A stretch of DNA of 36,980 nt from a virus. The stretch is from positions 1-36,980 of IMG/VR virus record IMGVR_UViG_3300035492_000302. One strand, written 5' to 3'. Shown piece after piece: positions 13,459 through 36,980 of this stretch. The notes under the pieces were generated by a model. It did no database searches. It was not told the origin of the DNA and worked only from the letters and a program-made list of their open reading frames with translations. A program made the position numbers and the translations under genes. How positions within the stretch are numbered: the stretch's first letter is position 1; each line of letters starts with the position of its first letter.

Positions 13459-13463
13459 GATGT

Positions 13464-14390: not shown

Positions 14391-14404
14391 GGTGGTGTTC
14401 TCCG

Positions 14405-18073: not shown

Positions 18074-18159
18074 GCGGGCAATGGTGCCGGTGGTTGTTCA
18101 TGTATGCAGCAAGGCTCGTGCCAGATGCCGGTCATTACCTATCGATGCGGTAATGCGCG

Positions 18160-20029: not shown

Positions 20030-20040
20030 GTCTGTCTGGC

Positions 20041-20466: not shown

Positions 20467-20537
20467 GTGCATTCCCTTCCTGTTGTCTATGGTTGATGTT
20501 CTCGCGATGCGTTGCATAAAACCTCCGCTGCAAGTGG

Positions 20538-21226: not shown

Positions 21227-21322
21227 TGCAATCTCCTGAAGTCGGCGGTGGGCGGGCTTCGGGTCTGGAAAAGGAGGAAACCAAACCGTCAGCCCGCGCC
21301 GCCGTGCGCCGTGGGGTGCTCG

Positions 21323-21991: not shown

Positions 21992-21996
21992 AGTCG

Positions 21997-23022: not shown

Positions 23023-23058
23023 TCGGTGCTCCGGGTAGTGATAGGTGTCTGTCGGTGA

Positions 23059-23922
23059 TCAGATGTCGGTCAGAATCGCGCCGGTGCCGCCACTGGAAAG
23101 CGGGCGTTTCGGCTGATCATCCGGTGTCTTTTCGAGCCTCTGACGAAACTCGCGAAACTCTTTGGCCAGGGTCTCAATTTCTTTGCTTACATCGACATCG
23201 GCGACCGGCGTGGCTGACGCTGTGTTCTTGAATTTGCGCAGTTGCTCATCGAGCTGGCCAACATGCTCGGTCAAGGCCTCAATGGCTTCGTAAAGATCGT
23301 CTAAGTTCTCATCGGCCTGGGCGCGACTGGCGCGGCTAAAGCGTGCAAGCATTTCCTTGACGCGATCAGCGATTCCCGAGGGCTCCTCGTCCTCGCTGAA
23401 CTCAAGCGTGGCCTCCAGGGCTTCAGAGAAAAGGCAATCTTGCGAAGTCTTGCGAGCGGAAAAAGGCGACGCCTCAGGCTTTTGGCGTGCAAACTCAAGC
23501 ATCTGGGTACCCAAAGACGCGGGGCTGTCGGTCACCGCCAGGCCGGTCAGGTAGGCTTTACCAGTCTCAGCAAATTTGGGGGCTACCTCGATCGATGTGT
23601 AGATTTTCTGACGCTTTTTGTTGATCTCGATCAGCTCAGGCGTGGGGGAGATTTGCGCGAACAGCGCAAGCTTTCCTTCTTCGACTTCTCGGGCTTCAAG
23701 GGCAAGCACATCACCATAGGCGCGAAAGTCGCTGTCAGGGTAAATGCCGCGAATGTGCTCAAGCCAAATGCGCGCACCATAGGTCTGGGGGTCATACGTG
23801 TTGGCCATCTGCTCGATCCAGTCACGCTGGATGTGGCGGCCGTCAGTGCTTGCACCTTCGGTGGCTACGCGGAACCACTTGGATTTGAACTTCTTGGCCT
23901 GGGGGGATTGAGGTTTTTTCAT
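23059..23922 (-). CDS. O: Capsid scaffolding protein O
   Basis: Internal start M36 of ORF 23059..24027: MKKPQSPQAKKFKSKWFRVATEGASTDGR is a gpO-like N-terminus. It is divergent from P. Confidence 0.8.
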   Translation of the reverse strand: MKKPQSPQAKKFKSKWFRVATEGASTDGRHIQRDWIEQMANTYDPQTYGARIWLEHIRGIYPDSDFRAYGDVLALEAREVEEGKLALFAQISPTPELIEINKKRQKIYTSIEVAPKFAETGKAYLTGLAVTDSPASLGTQMLEFARQKPEASPFSARKTSQDCLFSEALEATLEFSEDEEPSGIADRVKEMLARFSRASRAQADENLDDLYEAIEALTEHVGQLDEQLRKFKNTASATPVADVDVSKEIETLAKEFREFRQRLEKTPDDQPKRPLSSGGTGAILTDI

Positions 23923-24103
23923 GGGGCAGTCCTGGACAATGACATGGGCAAGTAAGCGCCGGCGGCCTAGGTGGCCGTTGTGTACATAGTTGTGCAGGAT
24001 GGTCGCGGTTAGGCCGCAGTGGCTCAACCCGTGATCGCGGTTTTGTCAGTCATTACCTAAGCGCCAGAGGGAAAGGTGTACGGCGGGCAAAGACAATGCG
24101 GGC

Positions 24104-25864
24104 ATGCTTGAATCGATGCCCCCGCCCCAACATGACAACCGACGACTGGCCCGTTTTCTTTATTTTCAGGGCTGGCGCATCTCGTCGATCGCCGAATACT
24201 TGGGCGAGGCGCGCACGACCGTTTCAAGCTGGAAAGAGCGCGATGACTGGGAAAAGGTGCCGCCGGTCGAGCGTATCGAGCTGGCACTTGAAGCAAGGCT
24301 TGTCCAGCTGATCGTCAAGCCGGAAAAAACCGGCGGAGACTATAAAGAAATCGATTTGCTGGGTCGCCAGGCCGAACGTTTGGCAAGGATACGTCGGTAC
24401 AACAACGGTGGCAATGAACTTGATCTGAACCCGAAAATCGCCTCACGCAACGCCTCGCCCAAGCGCAAGTACATGCGCAACGAGTTCAGCGAAGAGCAGG
24501 CCCAGAAGCTGTCAGACGCTTTCCGTGATTCGCTTTTTGACTACCAGAAAGTGTGGCTGCGCAACAGCAGCCAGCGCACCCGGGTCATCCTAAAAAGCCG
24601 ACAGATCGGGGCCACCTGGTACTTTGCCCGCGAGGCGCTGGCTGACGCCATCGAGACGGGCCGCAATCAGATCTTTCTTTCGGCCTCCAAGGCGCAGGCG
24701 CACGTTTTCAAACAGTACATCGTGCAGTTCGCCCGCGAAGCGGCCGACGTCGATCTAAAGGGCGATCCTATTGTTTTATGGAATGGCGCGCACCTCTATT
24801 TTCTAGGCACCAATGCGCGCACGGCCCAGGGCTACCACGGAAATTTTTACTTCGACGAATTTTTCTGGACGAACAAGTTTCAAGAGTTGAACAAAGTGGC
24901 CAGCGGCATGGCCATGCACAAGAAGTGGCGCAAAACCTACTTCAGCACACCCAGCAGCACCAGCCACGAGGCCTACCCATTCTGGAACGGAGAAATGTTC
25001 AACAAGCGCCGGCAAAAGGCCGATAAGCGGTTGTTTGATGTATCGCACCAAGCACTGGCTGGCGGGCGCGTGTGCCCTGACCAGGTGTGGCGCCAGATCG
25101 TCACCATCATGGATGCCGAGGCCGGAGGTTGCGACCTTTTCGACATCGATGAGCTGCGCAACTATGAGTACAGCCCGGAAGATTTTCAGAACTTGTTGAT
25201 GTGCCATTTCATCGACGATACGGCCTCGATATTTTCTTTTTCCGAACTGCAGCGCTGCATGGTCGACTCCTGGGAAGAGTGGTCGGATTTCAAGCCGTTT
25301 GCTATACGCCCGGCAGGTCACCGAGCAGTGTGGATCGGCTACGACCCGTCACACACTGGTGACAGTGCGGGTCTAGTGGTGGTGCTTCCCCCGGGCATCA
25401 CAGGAGGCAAGTTTCGCGTGATCGAGCGCCACCAGTTTCGGGGCCTGGACTTTGCTGCGCAGGCCGAATTCATTGAGGGTCTGACAAAAAAATACAACGT
25501 GCAATACATCGGTATCGACTCGACCGGCCTTGGCCAGGGCGTTCTGCAGCTGGTCAGACAGTTCTACCCGGGGGTGCGCGAGCTGAACTACTCGCCCGAA
25601 GTAAAAACCCGCCTGGTGCTCAAGGCCAAAGACGTTATCAGTAAAGGGCGCCTGGAGTTCGATGCCGGATGGACCGATATGTGTCAGTCGTTCATGACCA
25701 TACGCAAAACGCTCACGGCCAGCGGGCGCAAGGTCACCTACGACGCCAGCCGTAACGAAGAAACCGGCCACGCCGACCTGGCCTGGGCATGCATGCACGC
25801 ACTCGATAACGAGCCGCTTGAGGGCAGCTCGGGACACAACAGAAGCTTTATGGAGATCTCCTGA
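24104..25864 (+). CDS. P: Terminase large (ATPase) subunit P
   Basis: 586 aa. RRLARFLYFQGWRISSIAEYLG...SSWKERDDW is a gpP-like N-terminus. The start could instead be M5 at 24116. Confidence 0.9.
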   Translation: MLESMPPPQHDNRRLARFLYFQGWRISSIAEYLGEARTTVSSWKERDDWEKVPPVERIELALEARLVQLIVKPEKTGGDYKEIDLLGRQAERLARIRRYNNGGNELDLNPKIASRNASPKRKYMRNEFSEEQAQKLSDAFRDSLFDYQKVWLRNSSQRTRVILKSRQIGATWYFAREALADAIETGRNQIFLSASKAQAHVFKQYIVQFAREAADVDLKGDPIVLWNGAHLYFLGTNARTAQGYHGNFYFDEFFWTNKFQELNKVASGMAMHKKWRKTYFSTPSSTSHEAYPFWNGEMFNKRRQKADKRLFDVSHQALAGGRVCPDQVWRQIVTIMDAEAGGCDLFDIDELRNYEYSPEDFQNLLMCHFIDDTASIFSFSELQRCMVDSWEEWSDFKPFAIRPAGHRAVWIGYDPSHTGDSAGLVVVLPPGITGGKFRVIERHQFRGLDFAAQAEFIEGLTKKYNVQYIGIDSTGLGQGVLQLVRQFYPGVRELNYSPEVKTRLVLKAKDVISKGRLEFDAGWTDMCQSFMTIRKTLTASGRKVTYDASRNEETGHADLAWACMHALDNEPLEGSSGHNRSFMEIS

Positions 25865-26874
25865 TGCAACAAACAGAATCAACGCCTCACATCGAGGCCT
25901 TCACCTTCGGGGATCCGGAATCTGTTCTGGACCGCTCGCAAATCATGGACTACATAGAGGCCTGGTCTAACGGTAAATGGTACGAGCCCCCGATCAGCTT
26001 TGACGGTCTGGCCAAGTCGTTTCGCTCCAGCCCGCACCACTCATCGGCCATCTATGTGAAGCGCAACATACTGTCTTCAACGTTCATACCGCACAAACTG
26101 CTCAATCGAGACACGTTCTCGCGCTACGCCACCGATTATCTGGTTTTCGGCAACGCCTACCTGGAAAAACGCAACAGCCTGGCGCAAAGCACCCTGATGC
26201 TGGAGCACTCGTTGGCCAAGTACATGCGCCGCGGCGTCGACCTGCAAACCTACTACTTCGCACACAGCTGGGGCAAAGAGCATGAGTTCAAGCCAGGCAG
26301 CATCTTTCACCTGCGCGAGCCAGATATCAATCAGGAAATTTACGGGCTGCCCGAATACTTGGGCGCGCTGCATTCGGCCTGGTTGAACGAGTCGGCCACG
26401 CTATTCAGGCGCAAGTACTACAAAAACGGATCGCACGCCGGATACATCCTGTATGTGACAGATGCGGCGCACGACATGAAAGACATCGACGGCCTTAGAA
26501 AGGCTGTGAAGGAAAGCAAGGGGCCAGGGAACTTTCGCAACCTTTTTATGTACGCGCCTGGCGGCAAAAAAGAAGGAATCCAGGTCATCCCGTTGTCCGA
26601 GGTGGCCGCCAAGGATGAGTTCTTCAACATCAAGGCAGTGACCCGCGACGATCTGCTGGCGGCGCACAGGGTGCCGCCTCAGCTGCTGGGCATCGTGCCC
26701 AACAACGTTGGCGGTTTTGGCGATGTAGAAAAAGCGGCCCAGGTATTCGTCCGCAACGAGCTTGGCCCGCTTCAATCACGAATGAAACAACTTAACGAAT
26801 GGCTGGGTGAAGAAGTGGTGCGCTTCGAGCCGTACACCATCGTGCCTCCCGCTCAGGAAACGCCAATCATTTGA
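25864..26874 (+). CDS. Q: Portal protein Q
   Basis: 336 aa, with a TGATG overlap with P. It resembles P2/PBSX-family portal proteins. Confidence 0.9.
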   Translation: MQQTESTPHIEAFTFGDPESVLDRSQIMDYIEAWSNGKWYEPPISFDGLAKSFRSSPHHSSAIYVKRNILSSTFIPHKLLNRDTFSRYATDYLVFGNAYLEKRNSLAQSTLMLEHSLAKYMRRGVDLQTYYFAHSWGKEHEFKPGSIFHLREPDINQEIYGLPEYLGALHSAWLNESATLFRRKYYKNGSHAGYILYVTDAAHDMKDIDGLRKAVKESKGPGNFRNLFMYAPGGKKEGIQVIPLSEVAAKDEFFNIKAVTRDDLLAAHRVPPQLLGIVPNNVGGFGDVEKAAQVFVRNELGPLQSRMKQLNEWLGEEVVRFEPYTIVPPAQETPII

Positions 26875-26890
26875 CCCGGCGAAAAAGCAA

Positions 26891-26919
26891 AAGGGCCGCG
26901 TTGCTGTGGCCCTTTTTTT
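26891..26919 (+). terminator. Rho-independent terminator after Q (probably bidirectional)
   Basis: aagggccgcg ttgc tgtggccctt stem followed by T7. The reverse strand also has a T-rich tail (TTTTGCTTTTTC). Confidence 0.7.
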
Positions 26920-26953
26920 CGTCCTGTTAATGGCCAGGACAAAATGCCCTTCC

Positions 26954-27151
26954 CTACTGCCGTTCTAGAAGCGCCCTTTCGTGAGCCTGGTTCAGGCGGT
27001 CAACCCAGGGCTGCATCAGTGCATGTACGTGATGTCCCGGAACCTGCTCGCCATCTACCTTGGCCAGCAGATCCTGCAGGGCTAGCAAGCCGATCAAGGC
27101 GTCTTCCATCAAATCGAAGTACACCCGTGTGTGAAGTGGCTGGTTAATCAT
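26954..27151 (-). CDS. Hypothetical 65-aa protein downstream of ant
   Basis: Internal start M29 of ORF 26954..27235. It overlaps the ant stop by 8 nt. Confidence 0.45.
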   Translation of the reverse strand: MINQPLHTRVYFDLMEDALIGLLALQDLLAKVDGEQVPGHHVHALMQPWVDRLNQAHERALLERQ

Positions 27152-28064
27152 GGCTGCCTCCGGTGTGATGATCTGCCGCACCTTGGAACACAGCGCCTTG
27201 ATCGTCGCTTTCTGATGTGCCGCTAGAGCTTTCACCCCAGGCCTGCGGCGCCCTTTCCTCGTTCTTGAACAGCCAGCAGCGCACTGACTTTTCCGTCAGT
27301 CCACTGTTGACCACGGTGCCTGGCGAAAGAAAGCGGGGTCGGCGGCTGGCCCGCATGGCGCGCAACAGATCCTTTCGGCTCATGGCGTTAATACCGCAGG
27401 CGTGCGCGGCATCCAGCAGCAGGTTCGGGTTGATGGCGATCAGCTCTGGATCACGCGAGTGGTTCATAGGGTAGCCGGCAGCGCCAAGCACTGCCACCAG
27501 ATCCCAGAACCGGCCAACGATGGGCGGTTCGCCCGGATCATTCTTGCCGATGGCCGACATGGGCGGGGTCTCGATGCCCTGGGCCAACAGCACGACGTTA
27601 AGTTGCTCCCAAAGCGTCTTGCGAACGACTGGATGGGTTTCAACCTTGAGCTTGTCCATCAGGCGCCAGCTGTGCCGCTGGCCAGCATAGTCGGGTCGCG
27701 GCTTCTTGCCTGGCATGATGTAGCTGCCGGTTTTGCGCAGGGTAGGCAGTACGTCTTCAAACACCCAGCGCTCGAACCGTTCGGCCGCCGGCAGGTGGCT
27801 GTTGACCATCAGCCGGAACATATCGGGCTCGCTGATAATGCGAGCCTCTTGTATCCGCCCCAGACTATCCACGATGGGGTGGTGTTTCACCACCCCACGG
27901 CAATGCTGCTTAAGCGCATTCACCGTGTCGCTGTAGCCCAACGCTTCGGCAACATCTTTGCCAACAAACCATACCTTGCCGTCTTCGTAAACGGTACGTA
28001 CAGCCTGCTGCTCGAATTCAAAGGTGGTGATCTGGGCGGAGTCGCCCTGGTAGTGTTCAGTCAT
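27144..28064 (-). CDS. BRO-N-domain antirepressor-like protein with a primase-C-terminal-like domain
   Basis: The N-terminus FEFEQQAVRTVYEDGKVWFVGKDVAEALGYSD is the Bro-N pattern. Residues ~186-267 align with the last ~96 aa of the primase-helicase (FWD..., NHxR.P..IA.N, VVNS, RCW.F). Confidence 0.8.
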   Translation of the reverse strand: MTEHYQGDSAQITTFEFEQQAVRTVYEDGKVWFVGKDVAEALGYSDTVNALKQHCRGVVKHHPIVDSLGRIQEARIISEPDMFRLMVNSHLPAAERFERWVFEDVLPTLRKTGSYIMPGKKPRPDYAGQRHSWRLMDKLKVETHPVVRKTLWEQLNVVLLAQGIETPPMSAIGKNDPGEPPIVGRFWDLVAVLGAAGYPMNHSRDPELIAINPNLLLDAAHACGINAMSRKDLLRAMRASRRPRFLSPGTVVNSGLTEKSVRCWLFKNEERAPQAWGESSSGTSESDDQGAVFQGAADHHTGGSHD

Positions 28065-28071
28065 GGTAGAG

Positions 28072-28337
28072 CTCCTGTGAGATTAAACCCAGCCGCCCGA
28101 TGCTAAACGGGGTGGGCAGGGCACGTGCGGGTTAGCATACCGGTCACAGGGTCCGGCGGGCCTTGCGGCCCCCCGCACGGCCTGCCCATAGAAGGCAATG
28201 CCATGAGGAGCACCAAAAGCCGCGTACCAATCTAGTGATGGCGCGGCTATTAGCGCCTGTGAACTCGGGATGCTAAACCCGACTGCCAATGGTATTGGCA
28301 GTGCCCTGACGATAGCCCGGGAAGGCGAACAAGTCAA
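28072..28337 (-). promoter_or_regulatory. ant leader: promoter, a1/b1, hairpin plus U-run, c4-like core, a2/b2 over the SD
   Basis: Elements in minus-strand order: promoter TTGACT-17-TATCGT (28337->28309); a1 at 28281->28267; b1 at 28262->28256; hairpin 28248->28218 followed by UUUU; a2 at 28112->28099; b2 at 28080->28074, overlapping the SD AGGAG at 28076->28072. Confidence 0.65.
28112..28190 (-). ncRNA. c4/CI-type antisense RNA core, copy 1
   Basis: The ~79-nt core folds into four elements: P1 GGGCAGG/CCUGCCC, P2 UGCGGG/CCCGCA, hairpin GGGCC-GCAA-GGCCC and hairpin CCGG-ACCCUGUGA-CCGG. It carries b' (CCUGUGA) and a' (AUGCUAACCCG), which are complementary to the flanking a1/b1 and a2/b2. It is paralogous to 36488..36569, with compensatory stem changes. 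Confidence 0.7.
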
Positions 28338-28373
28338 GACTGGAAGGCTGTTAAGCCATCCCGATGAGCTTTG

Positions 28374-28403
28374 ATTGTAGCAAAAGGTGCGTTTAATCGC
28401 ACC
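28374..28403 (-). promoter_or_regulatory. Second upstream promoter candidate with an 18-bp palindromic operator
   Basis: Extended -10 TGCTACAAT (28382->28374) lies directly downstream of the perfect palindrome GGTGCG-TTTAAT-CGCACC (28386..28403). The palindrome arms match the Pe dyad at 2524..2541. Confidence 0.35.
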
Positions 28404-28599
28404 ATTTTTATTTATAGGTGCGCAACATCGCAAGCGCATGGGCTCAAACGCTTGGCTGGCAGGCATCCCAGGATTTTCGCACCAGGCACGCCCAGCAGGC
28501 CCTCTTTCAGCACCTACGCCCCAAGAATCGCGCTACCCTCCGCGCCTGCGATCAAAGTTTGTTGCAAACGCCAAGACGCAACGGACACGACGATGGGAT

Positions 28600-28945
28600 G
28601 GGTAAAAATAAAAGTTGACCTTCGGAACAGTGTAACCTTCGAAATCGTCAGGTTTTCGACTATCTAACTTGTTGATTTCATGCCTGTTTTTTGGTCACGG
28701 TAGCAGCGTCACCTGACGTAACCTGTACTGTAACCGAAATACTAAGCCTATGATTTTTATAGATATTATTTTTTAAAAAAGTTTCTATCATCTACCGTAA
28801 TCGGGTCACGCTCCGATTACATAAAAAGTTACCGTACTACAAATTATTAAAACAAGGCGCAGTCTATCTATCCAGGCATTTCATTACCTAAGTTATAAAA
28901 GTTACAGTGTTCCCGACACCCCCCAGCCTAAATTTTTAATCTACA
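28600..28945. other. AT-rich non-coding island with iterated motifs (candidate attP arm, origin or cos region)
   Basis: No credible ORF. Motif copies: GTTAC(A/C)GT-type elements inverted at 28628-28636, 28717-28723 and 28727-28735, and direct at 28828-28836 and 28901-28909; TAAAAGTT at 28609, 28822 and 28896; inverted repeat gtaatcgg/ccgattac at 28797-28820. An extremely AT-rich centre lies at 28745-28790. Confidence 0.5.
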
Positions 28946-29143
28946 AAGAGCCGGGCAAACTACCTCGATCTGTTGCTGAACACTGCTCTTGCCCAGCTGT
29001 TGCAGGCGACGTCATCGGTCGCAGTCTCACCCTGTTTATGGCCAATGAATAAGGCCGCGCTAATGTGGCCCGGTTGACCTGGTAAACGCGCCTGGCCAAG
29101 GCCGCTTGGCACCTGGCCACAAGTAGTCTTGGCGTATTTTTTT

Positions 29144-29154
29144 GGGGGACTTTT
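29144..29154 (+). repeat. GGGGGACTTTT 11-mer, P-arm copy (candidate integrase arm-type site)
   Basis: Exact 11-mer, extendable to the 14-mer GGGGGACTTTTGGG shared with 29402..29415. It lies ~130 nt upstream of the tRNA-like core. Confidence 0.45.
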
Positions 29155-29282
29155 GGGTAAGTTTTCTGTACACGACTGTGCAGGACAGTACAAAACGGTG
29201 TATCAGAGCGCACATTTAGGTAGTAAGACGTGCGAAAATACGCTATATATCAAGGCGTTATGTGCGGCTTTTATCACCCTTA

Positions 29283-29331
29283 TTGGCTACGAACCAAGGG
29301 GTCGTGGGTTCGAATCCTGCCAGCCGCGCCA
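29283..29331 (+). other. attP core: 3' portion of a tRNA-Arg(ACG) gene (anticodon arm to CCA)
   Basis: ttgg-CTACGAA-ccaa anticodon arm (anticodon ACG), T-loop GGTTCGAATCC, acceptor 3' strand plus gCCA. It closely resembles the E. coli tRNA-Arg(ACG) 3' half as I remember it. The upstream part lacks a D-arm, so it is not a complete tRNA. Confidence 0.55.
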
Positions 29332-29360
29332 GAATTGCCCTGTTAAATCAACAGGTTAAA

Positions 29361-29397
29361 ACCGCCTAGGGGCGCAATCCCTAGGCGGTTTTTCTTT
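29361..29397 (+). terminator. Strong hairpin plus T-run (bidirectional terminator; contains the int stop codon)
   Basis: accgcctaggg gcgcaat ccctaggcggt is an 11-bp perfect stem followed by TTTTTCTTT. On the minus strand it is followed by TTTTAA. Confidence 0.65.
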
Positions 29398-30583
29398 GTG
29401 TGGGGGACTTTTGGGGGACTTTTCCGCCAACAACCTCGATCTGCGATCGGCGCAATATGGCCAGCAGATTGATAGTCTCCCCCACGCAACCCTCTTCTTT
29501 GATCAGTTCCAGTGCCGCATAAACTTCGCGGATCTGGGCTACTGCGTAATGGCTGGTCATGTCTCGTTTCGAGTGCCAAAGAATCTCATCTTGCGTACGC
29601 TCGGAAACGCCGGCGTTTCGCAAGCGCATTCCGACCGTGTGCCGCAAGTCGTGAACGTGCAGATCGCCCAGCCCTGCAGAGGCTCTGGCGTTCTGCCAGG
29701 CCGTGTTGTGCATATCACTGATCGGCAAGTACTTTGGCTTGCTGCCGAGCTTATTTGACACGCGCCTTGACCAGGTAAACACCCGCTCAGGGTGGCGGCC
29801 GCGCTGCGCGTCAATGATCTGCTGCCCAAGGCTGTTGCAAAAAAGAAGCCGTTCGGACTTGCGGCCTTTGACGTACTCACGCGGCACCACAAAAACCGAG
29901 ACTGTCGTCTGTTCAGACAGGGGCACCTGAACTTCCCAGCGCCAACGTAGCTGGCACACGACATTCTTACGGGCACCGCTGTTCAGGCAGAACATGGCCA
30001 TGTCGACCAGGTGGGTCGGCAGGTGCTGCATCAACAACTTTTGTTCGGCCCATGTGATTGGCTGTGGTGCGCGCTGGTCGCTCAGATCAAGCATCGTTAT
30101 TTTGGGTGCCGATTCCAGCCAGGTCAGACGATTCTCAGGAAACCGCCATTGGGTCGCCGCCAGGCGAAGGATCCTGCCGACAATCGATAGCGTGTTGTTC
30201 AGGGTTTTGTTTTTGATGCCCTGGCGCTTACGCTCGCGAATGAAGCCGGCAAGTGTTTCGTCGCATATATCCTGAAGTGTTAAAGAGCCCAGCCTCTGAA
30301 CGACCGGCAGTAACAGATAGGCGTCTGTTTCAGCCGATGGCATGTTTTTGGCTTCTTTCTCTTCCAGATAACGGGTTGCTGCGCGCTCGAAGGTGACATC
30401 CGGCCTTGCGGCCGGGTTGTCGGAAAACTGCTGGATGCTGAATTGTTCCCGCGTCAGGTAGTCTCTCGCCTGCCTGTGATCCGTAAAGCCACGCTTTCGA
30501 ATGCGCCTGTTTCGGTACTGACAGTCGACCTGCCATGTGCCGTCCGATTCCTGGTAGATGCCTGTTTGTTTGACTCGTACCAT
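29381..30583 (-). CDS. int: Tyrosine recombinase / phage integrase
   Basis: 400 aa. The C-terminal catalytic-region motifs HDLRHTVGMRL and ...LWHSKRDMTSHY (R..HxxR..Y pattern) are present. It is adjacent to the tRNA-like attP. Confidence 0.9.
   Translation of the reverse strand: MVRVKQTGIYQESDGTWQVDCQYRNRRIRKRGFTDHRQARDYLTREQFSIQQFSDNPAARPDVTFERAATRYLEEKEAKNMPSAETDAYLLLPVVQRLGSLTLQDICDETLAGFIRERKRQGIKNKTLNNTLSIVGRILRLAATQWRFPENRLTWLESAPKITMLDLSDQRAPQPITWAEQKLLMQHLPTHLVDMAMFCLNSGARKNVVCQLRWRWEVQVPLSEQTTVSVFVVPREYVKGRKSERLLFCNSLGQQIIDAQRGRHPERVFTWSRRVSNKLGSKPKYLPISDMHNTAWQNARASAGLGDLHVHDLRHTVGMRLRNAGVSERTQDEILWHSKRDMTSHYAVAQIREVYAALELIKEEGCVGETINLLAILRRSQIEVVGGKVPQKSPTQRKTA
29402..29423 (+). 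repeat. GGGGGACTTTT x2 in tandem, P'-arm copies (inside the int 3' end)
   Basis: Two abutting exact copies ~75 nt downstream of the core. Confidence 0.45.
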
Positions 30584-30792
30584 TTCATTTCTCCTGAATT
30601 GGCACGCTTACTACCTGCAACCAGTTTATACCGATCCCAAAAATCATCGAGGTCCTGCTTTTCGTAAATTATGGATGTACCGGCGCGCACAGCTTTGTCG
30701 CGCAGCTGCGGAATGACAGTTTGCTCAAAGAACCTGCGGCCCACGCCCAGGTAGGCCTGGGCTTCTTTGGTCGTGAATCCGCGCTTGATCAT
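30454..30792 (-). CDS. Excisionase/AlpA-like HTH protein
   Basis: The N-terminal 55 aa (TTKEAQAYLGVGRRFFEQTVIPQL...IYEKQDLDDFW) look like a Xis/MerR-type HTH. The 3' 130 nt overlap int, so the true C-terminus is uncertain. Confidence 0.5.
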   Translation of the reverse strand: MIKRGFTTKEAQAYLGVGRRFFEQTVIPQLRDKAVRAGTSIIYEKQDLDDFWDRYKLVAGSKRANSGEMKWYESNKQASTRNRTAHGRSTVSTETGAFESVALRITGRRETT

Positions 30793-31115
30793 TGGTTGAG
30801 ACCGTCAGCTGTTGAAATGTATTTTTCCATTGCCAAATCGATTTCGGCGTCGGCAAGTTTGCCAGTTAAAACTCGGTAACTGGCCGGATCGCACGCCCAG
30901 TCAACCCGAGTAATGCAAATGTCAACGGATCCATCGCTTTCGGGTTTGGTGGCGTGTCGATATCGCTCTGCATTTTTCTTCCAAGTCTGGACGTCTGGCG
31001 ATTGCATGGCGGCGCGGTAACCGGCAAGAAATAGTTGCCAGTGCGTGTGCCATGGCCATAAACCGTTATGCATTACCCAGAGATCAAAGGCCTCTTGTTC
31101 ATGCGGATCGTTCAT
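30789..31115 (-). CDS. Hypothetical protein
   Basis: 108-aa ORF, ATGA-coupled on both sides. Confidence 0.5.
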   Translation of the reverse strand: MNDPHEQEAFDLWVMHNGLWPWHTHWQLFLAGYRAAMQSPDVQTWKKNAERYRHATKPESDGSVDICITRVDWACDPASYRVLTGKLADAEIDLAMEKYISTADGLNQ

Positions 31116-31786
31116 GCGGAGATCTCCTTTTCAAATGCGCCGATCAGGTTCATAAAGCGTTGAAGGCGCTGGTATTCGGTTGGATCAAGTTTGATGCTGG
31201 CCCAGTTTTTGGTCAGGATGATGGCGCCATTGCTGTGCCACAAAAAAGCAAATGGCTGGCCCGGGGAAAGCTCAGACGACTCTTCTGGCTGCGGGCCTGA
31301 GCTGGTGGCCGAAGCTGTGGCCCCTGCGTCAACAGCGGGCACGGGATTTCGGTCAGACTTTTTGTGATTGATGCGTCGGGGCGTTCCCGCATCGATATCG
31401 ACGCCTGCAGGCGTTTGCGCCTGGCTGGCGACTGGCGGCCGCACAGCCGCTCTGGCCAGCAGACCTTGCCGAGGCTGCAGGTTAGGCTTGGCCCGCTCTG
31501 CGGGTTGTGGCTGCGCCCGTTCCTGATGAATTGGCTCGTCGTCGTCACGCGGCAAGGGCGTGCCGTCACCAAGGGCGAAGTGGTACAGACCGTTGATTTT
31601 TTTCTTTCTCAGCAGGCCGTGATCGATCGACTTGTTCAGTGCCGTGATGACTGCCGAAGAAGGCTGATCCATGGCGGCCGATAGCGGGCCGCTGGCGATC
31701 CATTTGCCCTCTGGCAAAGTTTTCAGGTATTGGATGACACGCCAGGCCAACGTAGCTGGGTGTGGGGTGTAGTCTTTGTTAGTCAT
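31112..31786 (-). CDS. Hypothetical protein (possible N-terminal winged helix, disordered middle)
   Basis: 224-aa ORF in the operon with a P/A/Q-rich central region. Confidence 0.5.
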   Translation of the reverse strand: MTNKDYTPHPATLAWRVIQYLKTLPEGKWIASGPLSAAMDQPSSAVITALNKSIDHGLLRKKKINGLYHFALGDGTPLPRDDDEPIHQERAQPQPAERAKPNLQPRQGLLARAAVRPPVASQAQTPAGVDIDAGTPRRINHKKSDRNPVPAVDAGATASATSSGPQPEESSELSPGQPFAFLWHSNGAIILTKNWASIKLDPTEYQRLQRFMNLIGAFEKEISA

Positions 31787-31817
31787 GGTTCACCTGGTGC
31801 AATTCGGTTGACTGGTG

Positions 31818-32024
31818 TCACTCATCAAAGGGCACAGACTTTTCTTTTAGGCACTTTGTGCACTGAACGGTTTTGGTGCCGTTCCAGGCAATGCCTAGTG
31901 TTTTCCATTGTTGGTGCCGGCAGAACAGGCGCTGGATAAGCACCAGAATGATCAGAAGGACCCAAACGGAAAAGCCGATGAGCGGCAGCAGTATCCCGAT
32001 GAGCAAGGCGGTATGAAGTTCCAT
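31818..32024 (-). CDS. Small membrane protein with a Cys-rich tail
   Basis: 68 aa: one long hydrophobic stretch (LLIGILLPLIGFSVWVLLIILVLI) followed by C...CxxC. Confidence 0.45.
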   Translation of the reverse strand: MELHTALLIGILLPLIGFSVWVLLIILVLIQRLFCRHQQWKTLGIAWNGTKTVQCTKCLKEKSVPFDE

Positions 32025-32026
32025 GG

Positions 32027-32479
32027 TCAGGCCTCTTTAAATTGGTTGATCTTACGGGCCGGCTCCTGGCCGATCAGGGCCGCTTGCCAGGCGGTGTCGT
32101 CGTGCTTTGACCACATAGGGTCGCCAGGCCGGTAGCCGGCAATGACCTTGCCCAGCGTAATAAGTGCTTGGGCAGCGGTAATGGTGACCTTGGGCACGGC
32201 AGGGTCGATGCCTGCCCACAGTGGCGGTTTGTCGATCGCCTGCAAGGCGATGTCGACGCTCAGGCCGTGGCCTTCGGGCATTCTGGCCAGTTGTCCGGCC
32301 AGCATGCGCAGCTGGGCGGCTTGCAGTTCATTGTGCACCAGGCTGGCGTGATGCTCTTTGAGCAGCTTCTCGATTTTGTGCTCGAACTCGGCAAAGGACA
32401 TCAGACGATCCTTTTGCCCTTTGCTCAGGCTGTCACAGTAGGCGTGCATGGCGCTCATGATGTCGCGCTTTCGGTTCAT
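32027..32479 (-). CDS. Hypothetical protein
   Basis: Internal start M27 of ORF 32027..32557 (ATG at 32479). Confidence 0.5.
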   Translation of the reverse strand: MNRKRDIMSAMHAYCDSLSKGQKDRLMSFAEFEHKIEKLLKEHHASLVHNELQAAQLRMLAGQLARMPEGHGLSVDIALQAIDKPPLWAGIDPAVPKVTITAAQALITLGKVIAGYRPGDPMWSKHDDTAWQAALIGQEPARKINQFKEA

Positions 32480-32578
32480 ATTCACGGGTCGACCTCTTTG
32501 GGTAAGGTGTGGGTTGAAGGGCTGGCAGCGGTGCGAAGAGATAGACCTGCATCGCACATTAAGTGATTGGTTCTGTGT

Positions 32579-33160
32579 TTACTGGTCGCCCGCCTGGTCG
32601 AGCAGGTCAGGCTGGTACGGAATGCCGAGTTCGCCGGCAGCTTTTCCGATCATTCGATCAAGCAACTGGCGATCTTTGCTTGAGGCCAGTGCTGTCTTCG
32701 TTCTTAGAAGAGAGTTCACCAACATGTATTGGCGGCGCGTAGCGTCTTGCGCCCGAGCATGATTCAGGTTGAAGGCTGCGCCCAGCTGTTCGTAGTCATG
32801 CAGGGCGTCTGCCCACTCTTCAAGTTTTTGCTCCAGGAATTCCGCTGATGACTCGTTACCATTAACGCGCACTCGCTCCGGATTGATAGACATCAGATAA
32901 GCGGCAACGCGCGAAATTAGAATGCAGGTTTCCTCTCTTTTTTGACCACCTGCACCCCCCTTAAGTAGGGTGCAGACCCCCAAAAATCTGACCAGATAAG
33001 GGTTGCCAGTCACTTTTTTTCGCTGCTGTTCCCAGCGCAGGCCAAATAATTCAACGATGGGCTTAAGCGGTGTACAGTCTTCGCCCTTGTTGTTTTTGAC
33101 CACATCCAGTTGCATGCCTGCGTAGTTGATCGAAATGGTAAGTCGATTGTTTTCGTTCAT
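32579..33160 (-). CDS. P22 Ant N-terminal-domain-like protein (paralog 3)
   Basis: TCILISRVAAYLMSINPERVRVNG...EEWADALHDYE; shares these motifs with the two paralogs at the contig junction. Confidence 0.6.
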   Translation of the reverse strand: MNENNRLTISINYAGMQLDVVKNNKGEDCTPLKPIVELFGLRWEQQRKKVTGNPYLVRFLGVCTLLKGGAGGQKREETCILISRVAAYLMSINPERVRVNGNESSAEFLEQKLEEWADALHDYEQLGAAFNLNHARAQDATRRQYMLVNSLLRTKTALASSKDRQLLDRMIGKAAGELGIPYQPDLLDQAGDQ

Positions 33161-33199
33161 TGGTAAAGCTCCTTTTCGCTGGTTTTCTGCCTTACCCGG

Positions 33200-33493
33200 T
33201 TAGTCGTCGTCACCGCTTGCGCGGCGTTTTATGTCGGGCTGGGCGCTGTTTTTGCCGGGCAGCGGGCTGATGTATAGGGTGTTGCCCTGGGCGTGCAGGT
33301 TGTAGCGCCGATGCGGGTCGGCCTGGTTGGCTTGTGCCAGGTTAAGCAGGCAGGTGGCGATGGCCGGATTCTGCATGGCCTGTTCCAGGGTGCCGCGAAG
33401 GCGCGCCTGGCGATGCGCTTGCTGCAGCTCATGCCAGGTGGCCTTTCCCTGACGGCGGGCTGCCGGGACGATGATTTTTTCTGTATCGCTCAT
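33200..33493 (-). CDS. Hypothetical protein
   Basis: 97-aa ORF with an ATGA overlap with the primase stop. Confidence 0.5.
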   Translation of the reverse strand: MSDTEKIIVPAARRQGKATWHELQQAHRQARLRGTLEQAMQNPAIATCLLNLAQANQADPHRRYNLHAQGNTLYISPLPGKNSAQPDIKRRASGDDD

Positions 33494-36192
33494 TTGGCTG
33501 TGACTCCCTTCTCAAAGACCCAGCAACGCTCCGATGTGCTGATGTTTTTTAGTTCGCGGGCCTTGATGGCGCTGTTGACGACTTTCTGGCCCATGTAGCG
33601 ATGGCGCTTGCTGGTTTTGAGCAAGGCCTTGAGTTCGCGCAGCGGTGGCATTTGTTGTTTGTGCTCGATGGCCACCTGCAGCACGTGGTTCAGGTTCAGG
33701 GCGATTTCCTGCGGGCTGCGGGCGTGGTTAAGCGTGGGCTTTTCTTCGTCACCGTTCAGGTAGTAGTACATGTCCCAGAACTCTTGCACCATGGGGTGAT
33801 CGGAGTCGATGGCTTGCTCGCGCTGCTTGGCCATGGCCAGGATTTGCAGCCGCAGTTGCTGGTGCTGTTCGTCGCTGAGGCGAACGACCAGGCGCAGCGC
33901 GTCGGCCAGCGCCAGCAGCTGGCCATGGCATTTGGCGATACGTACGGTGCGGATCTCGGGATCTTGCAGCAGCTGGCGCTCGTACATGGGCGCTTTTTCG
34001 TCGACCAGTTCTAGTATCTGGGCCTCACGCAAGGTGGCCGCCAGAATGAAGCCCGAAACCGTATCCATGGGCATGCGTTCGAGCAGCTTGGCTGCCTCGG
34101 CGGTGTCGCGGCTTTGTGTGGAACGGTCAAAGTACAGATGCACGATACGCGTCATGACCGCATCGGAGGCCGAAACAGGGTTGTTCTGGCTGATAACGAT
34201 AGCCCCGCGAAAGGGCGGCTCGTAGGTTTCGTTGCCGCCGTTGGCTACGCCACGGCTGCGCACGCTGCGCCCGTTATAAGCGGTTTTCAGCTCGTCCCAG
34301 TCAAAGGCGCGCACCTTGGGGTTGTTCTCGCCGGTTTGCTCACGGTCTGACTCGATCAGTACGACCGGCATGCCCGAGACCTGGGCAAAGTTGCGCGCCC
34401 GGGCTGCGGCCGTGGATTTTGACGGGTCAAAGCCTTCGTAGTCTTGCCGACCGAACAGCTTCCACATGAATTCGATCAGCGTGGTTTTGCCTGACCCGGC
34501 CTCCCCTACGATCTCAAGGAAAGGGAACGATTTCTGGCTGGCGCGGATCTGCTCGGCAAACAGGCTGCCAAACCAGAACGTGAGCGCGGCCAGCCCTTTA
34601 GCACCAAAGGCACTGGCCATCGGTTCGATCCAGCCACGGTCGTATTCGGTGCGATCGTCGTTGATCTGCAGGTTGACCGACTGGCTGAGCGTCTTGACCG
34701 AGAGCTTGCCCATGTCGAAATAGTCTTCGTCGTTGATCTTGTGCACCTTGCCCTTGGCCACCGCGAGCTTGCCCAGGATGTAGCAGCCGTACTCGCGGCT
34801 GTAGCCGGTGTAGTCGACGGTTTCGACCTGTTTGATGGCGTACAGCTGGCGCTCCAGGGCGCGATCAAGGTGCATGTTCGAGCCCGAATACATGGCCCCA
34901 GGCGCGATGGCCAGCAGGCGTTTTTTGAATTCCGAGGCGCTGGACAGCTGCGCGCTGGTGAAGGTGTTCTTGACGGCGCCGCCGTCGTGGGGGAATTCCA
35001 CCCGGAAGTAGTACCAGGACTCGTCGGTAATGCGGTTGGCCTGGTAGTACAACGGGTAAGGGTGGCAGTTGGCGATTTGCCGGATGCCGCCCGATTCTTG
35101 CATGGCCTGCTCGCGCAGCTGCTCGGGATCCATGTCGGGGTGCTCTTCGGCGATGCGGTCAAGCGCCCGGTGATAGGCATCGACGTTCAGGCTGAACCAG
35201 TACAGCCGACGGCCGAACTCAAATTCAAATTCGCTGCGTTTGGGGTTGTGGCCATACATGAGCATGGCTTTCTCGGTGGCCGTCTGGGCCATGAGCAGCG
35301 CACCGTTATACAGATAGTCTTTCAGGCCTTCGGTGCCTAGCCTGTGCTTGGTGGCGTCGGGCTCGGACCGATCGAGCATGTGCAGGTCGTTCCAGTCTTG
35401 CTTGCGCTGACCCTGCTGGCCAATGAACGCGGCCTTGGCTGGCCAGCCGTCGGTGCGGGCGCGTGTAACGTGCTTGCGCATGTAGTCGCGCCCTGCTTTG
35501 TCGCCGTCGTATGCAAAAACGAGTTTGACCGGGTTGCCGCCGCGTTCTTCGAGCAGCTTGGCCAAGGCCTCGTGCGGGTAGTTGCTGCAGCTGATGTTGG
35601 CCGCCGCTGCCACACCGTGGTGCCACAGCGCGATGGCATCAAAGATGCCTTCGACCAGCCACAGCTCTTCGGTCTGCGTCAGATCCAGGCCAGGCGGCGT
35701 CCACCACTGGCCACGAAAGGTGCCCCCGCGCTGGATGTGCGCTTTCATCTTGCCAAAGCGCTCGGGCTGGTCGATCAAGCGCTCCCACCAGGTGTTGGCC
35801 ACTTTGAAGCGCACGGTGGCCGAACCGATCTGGCGTGCCGGGTCGAAAAAGTTCTCTTGGGTGTAGGCCCCGCGCAGGCGGGCGATGTCAAAGCCCCGGC
35901 CGATGGCCAGATAGGCATCGGCAGCGGCGTTGGGGTTGGTGGTTTGTTCGGTGGCGTAGCGCTTGGACCAGTTTTCAAACAGGTCGGGGTACAGCTCTTT
36001 AACGTGGGCCTCGTAGCCGCAGTTATTCAAGCGACCACATTTGACCACCCAGGGCGATTCGGCATGCGTCCAGAGCTCTTTCTTGCGGCACGATGGGCAG
36101 ATGCCCCCGCGCAGGTAGCCGGCGCGTTCCTTGAACTCGAATTCGGTCAGGCGGTCGCTGAGCTCTTTCAAAAGGGCGTCATTCATGCTCAT
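33490..36192 (-). CDS. Primase-helicase (P4 alpha-like replication protein)
   Basis: I chose M53 of ORF 33490..36348. Motifs: Zn ribbon CPSC...CGRLNNC; TOPRIM-like LVEGIFDAIAL and YDGDKAGRD; Walker A GEAGSGKTT. Confidence 0.85.
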   Translation of the reverse strand: MSMNDALLKELSDRLTEFEFKERAGYLRGGICPSCRKKELWTHAESPWVVKCGRLNNCGYEAHVKELYPDLFENWSKRYATEQTTNPNAAADAYLAIGRGFDIARLRGAYTQENFFDPARQIGSATVRFKVANTWWERLIDQPERFGKMKAHIQRGGTFRGQWWTPPGLDLTQTEELWLVEGIFDAIALWHHGVAAAANISCSNYPHEALAKLLEERGGNPVKLVFAYDGDKAGRDYMRKHVTRARTDGWPAKAAFIGQQGQRKQDWNDLHMLDRSEPDATKHRLGTEGLKDYLYNGALLMAQTATEKAMLMYGHNPKRSEFEFEFGRRLYWFSLNVDAYHRALDRIAEEHPDMDPEQLREQAMQESGGIRQIANCHPYPLYYQANRITDESWYYFRVEFPHDGGAVKNTFTSAQLSSASEFKKRLLAIAPGAMYSGSNMHLDRALERQLYAIKQVETVDYTGYSREYGCYILGKLAVAKGKVHKINDEDYFDMGKLSVKTLSQSVNLQINDDRTEYDRGWIEPMASAFGAKGLAALTFWFGSLFAEQIRASQKSFPFLEIVGEAGSGKTTLIEFMWKLFGRQDYEGFDPSKSTAAARARNFAQVSGMPVVLIESDREQTGENNPKVRAFDWDELKTAYNGRSVRSRGVANGGNETYEPPFRGAIVISQNNPVSASDAVMTRIVHLYFDRSTQSRDTAEAAKLLERMPMDTVSGFILAATLREAQILELVDEKAPMYERQLLQDPEIRTVRIAKCHGQLLALADALRLVVRLSDEQHQQLRLQILAMAKQREQAIDSDHPMVQEFWDMYYYLNGDEEKPTLNHARSPQEIALNLNHVLQVAIEHKQQMPPLRELKALLKTSKRHRYMGQKVVNSAIKARELKNISTSERCWVFEKGVTAK

Positions 36193-36436
36193 GCCTGCCC
36201 CCGTTGATCTGGGCCAGGTACAGCGCCTCGGCTTGTTCCTGGGCGGCTTTGACGCGGGCAGCCTGGTTGGCCAGCACGATGCCCAGGCTTTCGAGCCTGA
36301 TGCCGTCTGCGGCCGCGCTCTGGCCGCCGGCATTGGCCAGTTCGGCAATCAGGCGCAGTTCGTGGTGAAGGGTGTAAAGGTTCTGTTCGAGCGTGTGCAG
36401 CTCGTGCGCGAGCGCGCTGGGGTGTTTACCAGTCAT
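36179..36436 (-). CDS. Small coiled-coil leader protein, translationally coupled to the primase gene
   Basis: 85 aa with an AAGGAG SD. Its 3' end overlaps the primase start by 14 nt. Confidence 0.55.
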   Translation of the reverse strand: MTGKHPSALAHELHTLEQNLYTLHHELRLIAELANAGGQSAAADGIRLESLGIVLANQAARVKAAQEQAEALYLAQINGGRHEHE

Positions 36437-36442
36437 GACTGA

Positions 36443-36719
36443 CTCCTTTTGTCGTGGTAGGAGTCCACCGCCTCGCTGCTAAACGGGGTGGGCGGACACA
36501 TGCGGGTTAGCAGACCGGGACAAAGGAACCGGCAGGGGCTTGCGCCCCTCCCGCACGGCCCGCCCATAGAGGGTGCCATGCTGCTGCGCACAGACGAAAA
36601 GAAAGCCGCGTGAACGGGATTTTGGCGGCTGTGCGCCTTTGTCATCCGGGCTGCTAAACCCGTGCGCTGGTTGTTTGCCAGCACAGGGGAAGTATAGCCC
36701 GGATGTAGCGGTTGGTGAA
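36443..36719 (-). promoter_or_regulatory. Primase-operon leader: promoter, a1/b1, hairpin plus U-run, c4-like core, a2/b2 over the SD
   Basis: Elements in minus-strand order: promoter TTCACC-17-TATACT (36719->36691); a1 at 36662->36648; b1 GACAAAGG at 36643->36636; hairpin 36630->36604 followed by UUCUUUU; a2 at 36488->36475; b2 GACAAAAGG at 36453->36445, overlapping the SD at 36448->36443. Confidence 0.65.
36488..36569 (-). ncRNA. c4/CI-type antisense RNA core, copy 2
   Basis: The ~82-nt core folds into four elements: P1 GGGCGG/CCGCCC, P2 UGCGGG/CCCGCA, hairpin AGGGGC-GCAA-GCCCCU and hairpin CCGG-UUCCUUUGUC-CCGG. It carries b' (CCUUUGUC) and a' (CUGCUAACCCG). Confidence 0.7.
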
Positions 36720-36735
36720 GGGTGTGATGCACGGG

Positions 36736-36980
36736 TCAAGCCTCCAGTGGCAGTTCCGTCTGGCCAGACAGCGGCACAGGCACACCCATTTCTGCATAGA
36801 TTTGGTGTATCAGTGTGGTTAGCGAGGCCCGCTCGCGCGGGCAGCTCGTATGGCCGCGCATCTTGCTCAGCGCCAGCAGATCATGAAGCGTTGATTTTTT
36901 GACGGCGGCACCCTTGGTTTCGTAGTCGTGCAGGGCATCGGCCCATTCCTTGATCTTGACGACCAGACGATCTGCGGCGT
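36736..36980 (-). CDS. C-terminal part of the junction-spanning P22 Ant N-like gene (same gene as 1..452)
   Basis: The frame continues from position 1 through 36853 to the TGA at 36738->36736: ...MRGHTSCPRERASLTTLIHQIYAEMGVPVPLSGQTELPLEA. The full gene is 570 nt (189 aa). Confidence 0.6.
   Translation of the reverse strand, partial: AADRLVVKIKEWADALHDYETKGAAVKKSTLHDLLALSKMRGHTSCPRERASLTTLIHQIYAEMGVPVPLSGQTELPLEA
36854..36980. repeat. Terminal overlap, right copy (identical to 1..127)
   Basis: Same 127-nt string as 1..127. This is consistent with an assembler overlap on a circular molecule. Confidence 0.95.

Follow-up and report, generated by a model that had tools for sequence, protein, structure and literature searches.

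A predicted c4/CI-type antisense RNA cassette before the primase-helicase gene of a P2-like phage

The DNA studied here, referred to below as the window, is the whole of the IMG/VR virus record IMGVR_UViG_3300035492_000302, 36,980 nucleotides (nt) in length, and the element in question occupies positions 36443-36719 on its minus strand. This segment lies between a gene that spans the junction of the circular genome and a leader open reading frame (ORF) of 85 amino acids (aa), which runs into a gene for a primase-helicase, and it has the make-up of the c4/CI-type antisense RNAs of phages P1 and P4. We call it cassette B, to distinguish it from a paralogous copy, cassette A, which precedes a gene for a Bro-N antirepressor-type protein in the same genome. 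The positions of the features of both cassettes and of the genes around them are collected in Table 1.

Results

Anatomy of cassette B

The core of cassette B is matched by the Rfam family C4 antisense RNA (RF01695) over the full model (1-87 of 87) with 61.3 bits, against a gathering cut-off of 45 bits, and over the whole window the E-values for this model are 1.2e-09 (copy B) and 7.9e-10 (copy A). Upstream of the core, promoter B is the sole promoter-like site in 36100-36980, where shuffled sequence averages 0.2, and its -10 box falls inside a block, CCGGGCTAT, that is common to both cassettes. The leader was also matched, at a permissive threshold, by two further Rfam models, both of which align end to end: c4-a1b1 (RF03163), with 41.4 bits, below its cut-off of 46.7 (local E = 3.2e-09, full model 1-53), and isrK (RF01394), which at 36599-36684 reaches 40.6 bits, below its cut-off of 50 (E = 1.7e-07). 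It is through the isrK alignment that the terminator-like hairpin of cassette B was recognised, as the terminal hairpin and U-run of the model fall on it, with a loop of about 14-15 nt where the model expects ~4; a simple terminator scan missed it because this loop is longer than 8 nt. The hairpin occupies the place of t1 in P4 and of the 3' end of IsrK.

Folded in isolation, core B has a minimum free energy (MFE) of -52.5 kcal/mol and a z-score of -5.21 (-4.3 for isolated core A). Both isolated cores adopt the structure of the family, composed of a P1 stem and two hairpins, P2 (closed by a GCAA loop) and P3, and in these predicted folds the a' box in the 3' junction and the b' box in the P3 loop are left unpaired. 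In the MFE folds of the whole leaders (z = -4.95 and -5.31), a1 and b1 pair in cis with a' and b', and for copy B RNAduplex gives -14.2 kcal/mol for the b'-b1 pair. The a-box octamer GTTTAGCA has four sites in the whole 37-kb window, which are a1 and a2 of the two copies, and occurs nowhere else; 0.76 sites are expected, and four were reached in none of 100 shuffles. Since alignment of whole cassettes and cores with MAFFT put the b boxes and the 5' strand of P1 out of register, box complementarity was measured by scripts instead of with a covariance model of our own.

At its 3' end the cassette meets the leader ORF, whose AAGGAG Shine-Dalgarno sequence (SD) lies within b2, 6 nt before the ATG at 36436. 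The 3' end of this ORF (stop at 36179) overlaps the ATG of the primase gene at 36192 by 14 nt. As the match of the primase to its PHROG profile begins ~8 residues past this ATG, it is likely to be the primase start and the overlap is likely to be of that length. The primase ATG is preceded by a weak GGCGG SD. The G+C content by codon position is of the coding type in the 85-aa ORF (0.74/0.40/0.77; 0.61/0.41/0.79 in the primase). No Pfam or PHROG match was found for the ORF, a search of 5.8 billion proteins for homologues returned the ORF itself alone, and the NCBIfam model XAC0095 gave a weak, sub-threshold match (20.1 bits against a cut-off of 34, E = 4.9e-4). The primase shows a distant, collinear similarity to the alpha protein of P4 in its Toprim and P-loop regions (23-25% in two segments).

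Table 1. Features of cassettes B and A, their cargo genes and other genes of the window
Feature	Position	Strand	Remarks
Promoter B: -35 TTCACC, 17-nt spacer, -10 TATACT	-35 36719-36714, -10 36696-36691	-	sigma-70-like
5' hairpin (hairpin 1) of cassette B	36684-36664	-	part of c4-a1b1 motif; appears in predicted fold
c4-a1b1 motif, hairpin 1 + a1 hairpin	36647..36684	-	RF03163 match; both hairpins appear in predicted fold
a1 box of cassette B, CGGGTTTAGCAGCCCG	36662-36647	-	hairpin CGGG-UUUAGCAG-CCCG
b1 box of cassette B, GACAAAGG	36643-36636	-	exactly complementary to b' loop
Terminator-like hairpin of cassette B, AGCCGC(loop)GCGGCU + UUCUUUU	36630-36597	-	isrK model alignment
C4 core B: P1 stem, P2 hairpin (GCAA loop), P3 hairpin	36571-36484	-	RF01695
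b' box of cassette B, CCTTTGTC	36526-36519	-	in P3 loop
a' box of cassette B, CTGCTAACCCG	36513-36503	-	single-stranded, 3' junction
a2 box of cassette B, CCCCGTTTAGCAGC (= CCCCGUUUAGCAGC)	36488-36475	-	
b2 box of cassette B, GACAAAAGGAG	36453-36443	-	contains AAGGAG SD of 85-aa ORF
85-aa leader ORF	36179..36436	-	orphan; place like P1 icd
Primase-helicase, 900 aa, Toprim + Walker-A GEAGSGKT	33490..36192	-	phrog_1139 DNA primase, 1145 bits; Toprim_2
Cassette A, paralogous	28072..28337	-	RF01695 + alignment with cassette B
Promoter A: TTGACT-17-TATCGT	28337-28309	-	position homologous to promoter B
a1 of cassette A	28281-28266	-	
b1 of cassette A	28262-28256	-	
Terminator-like hairpin of cassette A	28248-28213	-	
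C4 core A	28193-28108	-	RF01695 62 bits, full model
a2 of cassette A	28112-28099	-	
b2/SD of cassette A	28080-28072	-	
Bro-N antirepressor-type protein, 306 aa (cargo of cassette A)	27144..28064	-	
Junction-spanning gene upstream of cassette B, 189 aa	452->1 then 36853->36736	-	weak P22_AR_N
3' part of the junction-spanning 189-aa gene	36736..36980	-	
Integrase	29381-30583	-	
XRE-type repressor	about 2594-2989	+	divergent from minus-strand early operon (Arc/Ogr)

Two copies in one genome

The two ~290-nt cassettes can be aligned with 79% column identity over 324 columns (region B against 28050-28350 on the minus strand), and the alignment runs from the -35 box to 7 nt inside the downstream ORFs. 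The b boxes of the copies are different: those of copy B are CCUUUGUC (b'), GACAAAGG (b1) and GACAAAAGG (b2), and those of copy A are CCUGUGA (b') and UCACAGG (both b1 and b2). The a boxes vary at one position, where in copy B a C of a' faces a G in a1 and a2, and in copy A an A faces a U. These three-way compensatory changes keep each copy's own a/b complementarity, and the RNAs of the two cassettes thus look largely orthogonal. With regard to the energies of the b'-b2 duplexes, the b' box of copy B gives -9.9 kcal/mol on the b2 box of copy A, compared to -12.0 for the cognate pair, and that of copy A gives -7.7 on the b2 box of copy B, compared to -12.9.

The original prediction had read 36443-36719 as a second, paralogous c4/CI-type RNA that aligns block by block with 28072-28337 and coexists with an ant-directed copy, and had set its b2 box on the SD of an 85-aa ORF overlapping the primase start by 14 nt. 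Our analysis bears out this description: all the blocks listed were recovered in place on the minus strand, the covariance-model search found the C4 core there, the RNA is served by a promoter and by cognate a and b boxes that belong to this copy, and cassette A lies directly before the Bro-N antirepressor-type gene.

The cargo proteins of the two cassettes also resemble each other at their C-termini. The last ~90 aa of the Bro-N protein (27240-27542, minus strand; residues ~181-267) show 32% identity over 96 aa (E = 1e-09) to the C-terminus of the primase (33508-33795, minus strand; residues ~800-894), and the same region of the Bro-N protein matches the end of the phrog_1139 profile as well as the primase C-termini of six related loci. 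A fragment search with this domain found nothing, and sequence searches of the PDB were uninformative. The domain is possibly DNA- or partner-binding and, being common to both cargoes, it suggests that both RNA locks may gate proteins that use the same domain.

Recurrence of c4 cassettes before primase genes

A c4-centred pattern scan of IMG/VR returned at least 120 loci (L021-L140), with 121 cores among the matches listed, and it is to these matches that the counts in this section refer. In nine of the 121, a primase with 43-54% identity is encoded downstream on the same strand, and the nine primase-linked cassettes represent about six distinct lineages. Their cores score 75.8-89.6 bits for C4, and seven of them are accompanied by c4-a1b1 and/or isrK matches above threshold. 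Seven primase-linked cassettes were examined in detail. In all seven the ORF that follows starts 64-67 nt after the core, being a leader of ~75-98 aa in six, and all carry lineage-specific covarying b'/b1/b2 boxes, such as the triplets CCUGUAUC / GAUACAGG / GAUACAGGAA, CCUAUUCCC / GGGAAUAGG / GGAAUAGGAG and CCUAAGUCC / GGACUUAGG / GGCUUAGGAA; a terminator hairpin with a T6-T7 run is present in every one except L095. In six of the nine loci the leader is connected to the primase by a series of ORFs that overlap one another, and the leader ORFs (~86 aa) of related c4-primase loci form a family of their own, with an invariant YEL core within a YELLR-like motif.

Predicted pairing between the P3 loop and its targets likewise favours the cognate cassette. 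The mean energy of the b'-b2 duplex is -16.6 kcal/mol for cognate and -11.7 kcal/mol for non-cognate pairs. Over 116 cassettes, the longest complementary run has a mean of 8.5 for cognate versus 6.2 for non-cognate loops downstream of the core, and of 7.9 versus 6.5 upstream of it.

As to the genes that such cassettes precede, the first ORF of at least 100 aa after 99 cassettes belongs mostly to antirepressor-type families (Bro-N in 13, Rha in 10, ORF6N in 8, KilA-N in 5, AntA in 4, P22_AR_N in 2), with DUF6124 in 5 and Rep_O in one. Among the larger ORFs downstream there are also Toprim primases, AAA_25/DnaB-like proteins and DUF3987. This survey indicates that replication cargo is a recurring minority use of the c4 cassette.

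The arrangement was also sought starting from relatives of the primase, but it was recovered by the c4-centred scan alone. No C4 was found near the primase in ~45%-identical relatives from IMG/VR and GTDB genomes (L002-L008), nor in RSY1, a Halomonas phage, vB_BpuM-ZY1, ESSI2_ev239, phiCTX, Smp131, UFJF_PfPro and phi3, which were checked as representatives of eight isolate-phage groups. A search of isolate-phage DNA with the cassette of a relative returned only the c4 cores of P1/P7-like and Stx phages, with no cassette-plus-primase combination. Full-text searches of the literature turned up no publication that connects c4 RNA with a primase in prophages, nor one that describes replication cargo for c4 cassettes, P4 apart.

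One contig from Logan (SRR11791769_58322, here L020), whose positions 1-320 were compared with 36420-36760 on the minus strand, agrees with the window at every position (100% identity) from within the core, beginning in its 3' half, and on through 2,449 nt of the leader ORF and the primase. Its upstream part is ~75% identical, with a different promoter, a1 and b1 and with UUCG instead of GCAA in the P2 loop, and its b' box, CCGUUGUU, pairs poorly with b2 (-8.8 kcal/mol). The contig is either a natural recombinant with a breakpoint inside the core or a chimeric assembly.

Some other loci are worth recording. Two cassettes lie 2.5 kb apart in L042. Two P4-like elements of IMG/VR, L099 (2771-2974) and L113 (2537-5087), contain c4-a1b1/isrK and C4 matches, the C4 being followed by ORFs of 775 and 812 aa, respectively, with weak similarity to P4 alpha, and L113 additionally carries the int-alpA RNA (RF02996). 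Matches to other Rfam families were seen in related phages: sRNA-Xcc1 within a gene annotated as anti-repressor in Stenotrophomonas phage Smp131 (L016, 1947-2034), and Burkholderiales-2 RNA ~2.5 kb from the c4 cassette in Bordetella avium phages (L009, 7649-7722; L010, 7279-7352).

The phage and its early region

The contig ends in an exact terminal repeat of 127 nt (positions 1-127 = 36854-36980), which identifies the window as a circular assembly with a true length of 36,853 bp. The same phage is also present as a second contig in JGI sample 3300035491 (L019). Its large terminase shows 68-69% identity to the terminases of phiCTX and Burkholderia phage KS14, its portal, major head and tail proteins match P2-type PHROGs, and the P2-like morphogenesis module is full; judged by its genes, the source is a temperate P2-like phage of the Peduoviridae type. 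The description of a P4-like satellite (an alpha-type primase, no structural genes and no protein immunity repressor) does not fit the window.

On the minus strand, the early operon runs through an Arc-like and an Ogr-like gene, two unknown genes and two weakly P22_AR_N-like genes to cassette B, downstream of which lie the 85-aa ORF, the 900-aa primase-helicase, more small genes and int. The early-region genes matching P22_AR_N (189 and 193 aa) have the motif EWADALHDYE in common, and the region also holds a 158-aa ORF without a family match; the positions recorded for the P22_AR_N genes and this ORF are 449-925, 452..36736 and 32579-33160, all on the minus strand. A 21-nt DNA repeat, TCCAGTGGCAGTTCCGTCTGG, found at about 465-485 and 36743-36763, codes for a TELPLE tail common to the 158-aa and 189-aa ORFs.

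Between int and cassette A, the ~1 kb at 28340-29380 is without a convincing ORF, no tRNA was found in it, and a bidirectional terminator-like hairpin is located at 28386-28403. This is presumably the attP region, and if integration occurs here, cassette A and the Bro-N gene would come to lie at one end of the prophage, beside the portal gene.

Discussion

In this study, we have described a segment of a P2-like phage genome that we take, with a probability of roughly 0.7, to be a complete, functional-looking c4/CI-type antisense RNA cassette placed before phage replication genes. Cassette B is established as regards family membership, anatomy, complementarity, covariation and conserved synteny. 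It is part of a curated and widespread Rfam family that standard annotation flags, and both its architecture and its type of target are already known, the former from P1 and the latter from P4. What appears modestly new is the direct coupling, through a leader ORF, to a primase-helicase in full-size P2-like phages, and likewise its recurrence in uncultivated relatives and the fact that a single genome holds two cassettes which appear to be orthogonal.

The immI operon of phages P1 and P7, in which the c4 RNA is followed by icd and ant1/2, was reportedly described by Citron and Schuster in 1990. In the annotated record used for our comparison (NC_005856), the order of elements in P1 is promoter, a1, b1, c4 (77 nt), a2, b2, icd (73 aa) and ant1, and the order in cassette B matches it. 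The 3' end of c4 is separated from the ATG of the leader ORF by 51 nt in P1 and by 48 nt in cassette B; b2 lies just before the SD/ATG of icd in the former and on the SD of the 85-aa ORF in the latter, and the leader ORF overlaps the cargo by 4 nt (icd/ant1) and by 14 nt, respectively. The icd-ant-like arrangement put forward in the original prediction, with b2 on the SD of a short ORF that overlaps the cargo start, is therefore that of annotated P1. The two systems differ in their cargo, which is an antirepressor in P1 and a primase-helicase in cassette B, and in their carrier, a P1-like phage in one case and a P2-like genome holding cassettes A and B together in the other. In addition, no C1-type operator is known upstream of cassette B. 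Phages P1 and P7 are heteroimmune and differ by covarying boxes, as copies A and B do.

When the genome of P4 was scanned with Rfam, the CI RNA region (8420-8507, minus strand) scored 74.9 bits for C4, which places P4 CI in the same curated family as core B, and the P4 leader just upstream of the CI RNA matched isrK. The CI RNA of P4 lies in the leader of an operon ending with the alpha primase, as cassette B leads a primase-helicase operon, and in both a terminator or terminator-like hairpin separates the upstream target from the RNA. The concept, too, would be a shared one, of immunity exerted on replication. How CI/seqA/seqC control the replication genes of P4 through termination has been summarised (PMC4825925). 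However, P4 relies on ending transcription prematurely, and its RNA region is separated from alpha by four annotated genes, whereas the target in cassette B is the SD of an ORF overlapping the primase. Moreover, P4 is an 11.6-kb satellite without a protein immunity repressor, while the present phage, at 36.9 kb, is P2-like and encodes an XRE repressor. Cassette B is thus built like P1 immI, with a P4-like (replication) cargo. In this regard, the P4 paradigm proposed for the locus holds for the replication target and for CI being a member of the C4 family, and fails for the geometry, which is P1-like rather than termination-centred as in P4. The full-size P2-like nature of the phage, also predicted, agrees with the terminase identities.

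Related arrangements are known elsewhere. Examples of the c4 and c4-a1b1 motifs in proteobacterial prophages numbered 593 and 87, respectively, in Weinberg et al. 2010 (PMC2864571). The IsrK/STnc1160-orf45-anrP locus of Gifsy-1 in Salmonella has in common with what is predicted for cassette B an IsrK-like, short terminated leader RNA, a processed C4-like RNA after it and a small ORF whose translation gates the next gene; there, the gene whose translation is switched on by the short RNA is of the antirepressor type, and no replication gene is involved (PMC4825925). In Burkholderia cenocepacia J2315, differential RNA sequencing detected an isrK-like RNA, ncS23, with its own transcription start site, and a C4 RNA, ncS24, without one, the two forming one transcription unit (PMC4603805). 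This transcript pattern, from a different locus of a betaproteobacterial genome, is the pattern predicted for cassette B.

From this evidence we infer the transcription, processing, repression and any immunity phenotype of cassette B as follows. The constitutive sigma-70 promoter (36719-36691) would transcribe the leader, and many transcripts would probably stop at 36630-36597, giving a short IsrK/SeqA-like RNA with a1 and b1. Transcripts that read through would carry the ~88-nt C4 core (36571-36484), from which it would be processed out as in P1 and P4. In the mature RNA, b' (CCUUUGUC) would be presented by the P3 loop and a' (CUGCUAACCCG) by the junction, and the RNA would pair with a2 and b2 on transcripts of this type, either in cis or in trans. 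Since b2 contains the SD of the 85-aa ORF, this pairing is expected to block translation of that ORF, and the weak SD of the primase together with the 14-nt overlap suggests that the primase depends on translational coupling and would be silenced too, with Rho-type polarity probably adding to the effect, as in P1 icd-ant. The upstream a1/b1 pair may serve as a competing or autoregulatory target, as has been proposed for P1 and shown for P4 t1. In a lysogen, or on a superinfecting homologous genome, the replication genes would thus be kept off independently of the protein repressor, and cassette A would do the same for the Bro-N gene, with different b boxes and one different a position.

The hairpin between b1 and the core raises the question of whether the RNA acts in a P4-like mode, boosting premature termination at this t1-like hairpin and at Rho-dependent sites, with SD occlusion as a secondary effect. 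The hairpin and its U-run lie where the isrK model has its terminator, the feature returns, with longer U-runs, in every primase-linked relative examined but L095, and P4 CI, of the same Rfam family, has been described as acting by termination (PMC4825925). However, b2 is placed right on the SD at a spacing like that of P1, and the distance from core to ATG is fixed at 64-67 nt across the examined lineages, a pattern expected from selection on translation initiation; termination as the principal mode is therefore rather unlikely in our judgement. The two modes are in any case not exclusive, as the translational block in P1 causes polarity.

The 79% identity between the copies, which includes the first 7 nt of the cargo ORFs, shows that the cassette behaves as a portable block, and the same identity could be taken to mean that copy B is an inert duplicate, a relic of recombination with cassette A or with the cassette of another phage. 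The apparent recombination joint inside the core of the Logan contig L020 and the lack of any cassette in most primase relatives point in the same direction. However, copy B has an undamaged promoter, undamaged stems and four undamaged target boxes, the three-way compensatory changes specific to each copy have been kept, and the same arrangement is found in about six diverged lineages with covarying b boxes. We consider an inert copy improbable.

We give still less credit to the proposal that the chief role of c4-B lies in trans, against P2-like phages that compete with this one or against P4-like satellites, as a weapon or a cross-immunity device. The near invariance of the a' box across many cassettes, the occurrence of c4 cassettes in the P4-like elements L099 and L113, and some non-cognate b'-b2 pairs that are as stable as cognate ones (-15.8 kcal/mol for the b' box of copy B on the b2 boxes of L132/L109) would be consistent with such a role, but the best-placed, copy-specific targets are its own a1/b1 and a2/b2, this genome contains no further a-box, and no candidate partner element was identified. 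Finally, that the region is protein-coding, with its RNA-like features incidental, is scarcely credible: an open frame of 99 aa with a GTG start is present (36433-36732), and automatic gene calls place similar ORFs on top of c4 in L020 and in Bordetella phage IFTN4, but the G+C content of this frame by codon position is flat (0.58/0.58/0.68, against 0.61/0.41/0.79 in real genes), L020 differs by indels of 1, 2 and 3 nt and by a GCAA-to-UUCG stem-loop swap that keeps the RNA structure and not the protein, and the Rfam match is strong.

Open frames of this kind lie over c4 cassettes at 36433-36732 and 28083-28466 (both minus strand) in the window, at 4957-5262 in L010, at 5004-5513 in L009 and at 23-307 in L020. 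Gene finders call such frames as proteins, also in the GenBank records of Bordetella avium phages, with the label 'integrase' in IFTN7 and IFTN9. These protein calls are probably annotation artefacts.

Several observations weigh against a working cassette that silences the primase in the way proposed above. The b'-b2 duplex of copy B contains a one-A bulge and is weaker, at -12.0 kcal/mol, than that of b' with b1 (-14.2 kcal/mol). The 85-aa ORF has no hhalign similarity to seven leader ORFs of other c4-primase loci and gives no alignment to P1 Icd; as it is an orphan, the case for its translation is made by its SD and composition only. Relatives of the primase in isolate phages lack a nearby C4, which implies that the cassette is dispensable for a replication module of this kind. 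The claim of orthogonality is weakened by the energies of cross-copy pairing, just 2-5 kcal/mol worse than those of cognate pairing. In addition, an XRE repressor is encoded divergently from the Arc/Ogr operon, so that the RNA probably adds a layer to immunity and is not its only determinant. All together, the RNA of cassette B is best seen as a second, replication-level lock, predicted to act also on a superinfecting genome of the same type.

A broader reading, which we hold only tentatively and which is in our view rather doubtful, is that c4 cassettes are portable RNA locks of ~290 nt, reaching from promoter to start codon and joined by recombination to varied cargo genes, and that in one lineage of P2-like phages two orthogonal locks, on replication (leader ORF and primase-helicase) and on the Bro-N gene, whose product has the C-terminal domain of the primase, jointly secure lysogeny on top of the repressor; the two locked proteins may then act at the same DNA or protein target. 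If this were the case, L020 would represent a natural recombinant swapping immunity specificity.

For annotation, our results imply that ORFs called across c4 regions are probably spurious. If the RNA works as predicted, c4/CI-type control would not be confined to the antirepressors of P1/P7 or to the satellite P4, and would instead amount to a cassette open to reuse, which phages of full size and P2-like type, too, set directly on their replication genes. Primase-family cargo accounts for ~7% of the cassettes among the matches listed, and a few more lie before AAA_25/DnaB-like proteins or Rep_O. The two orthogonal cassettes within one genome would be a compact natural pair of programmable translational repressors and, as such, a tractable system in which to follow the divergence and recombination of RNA-based immunity specificities.

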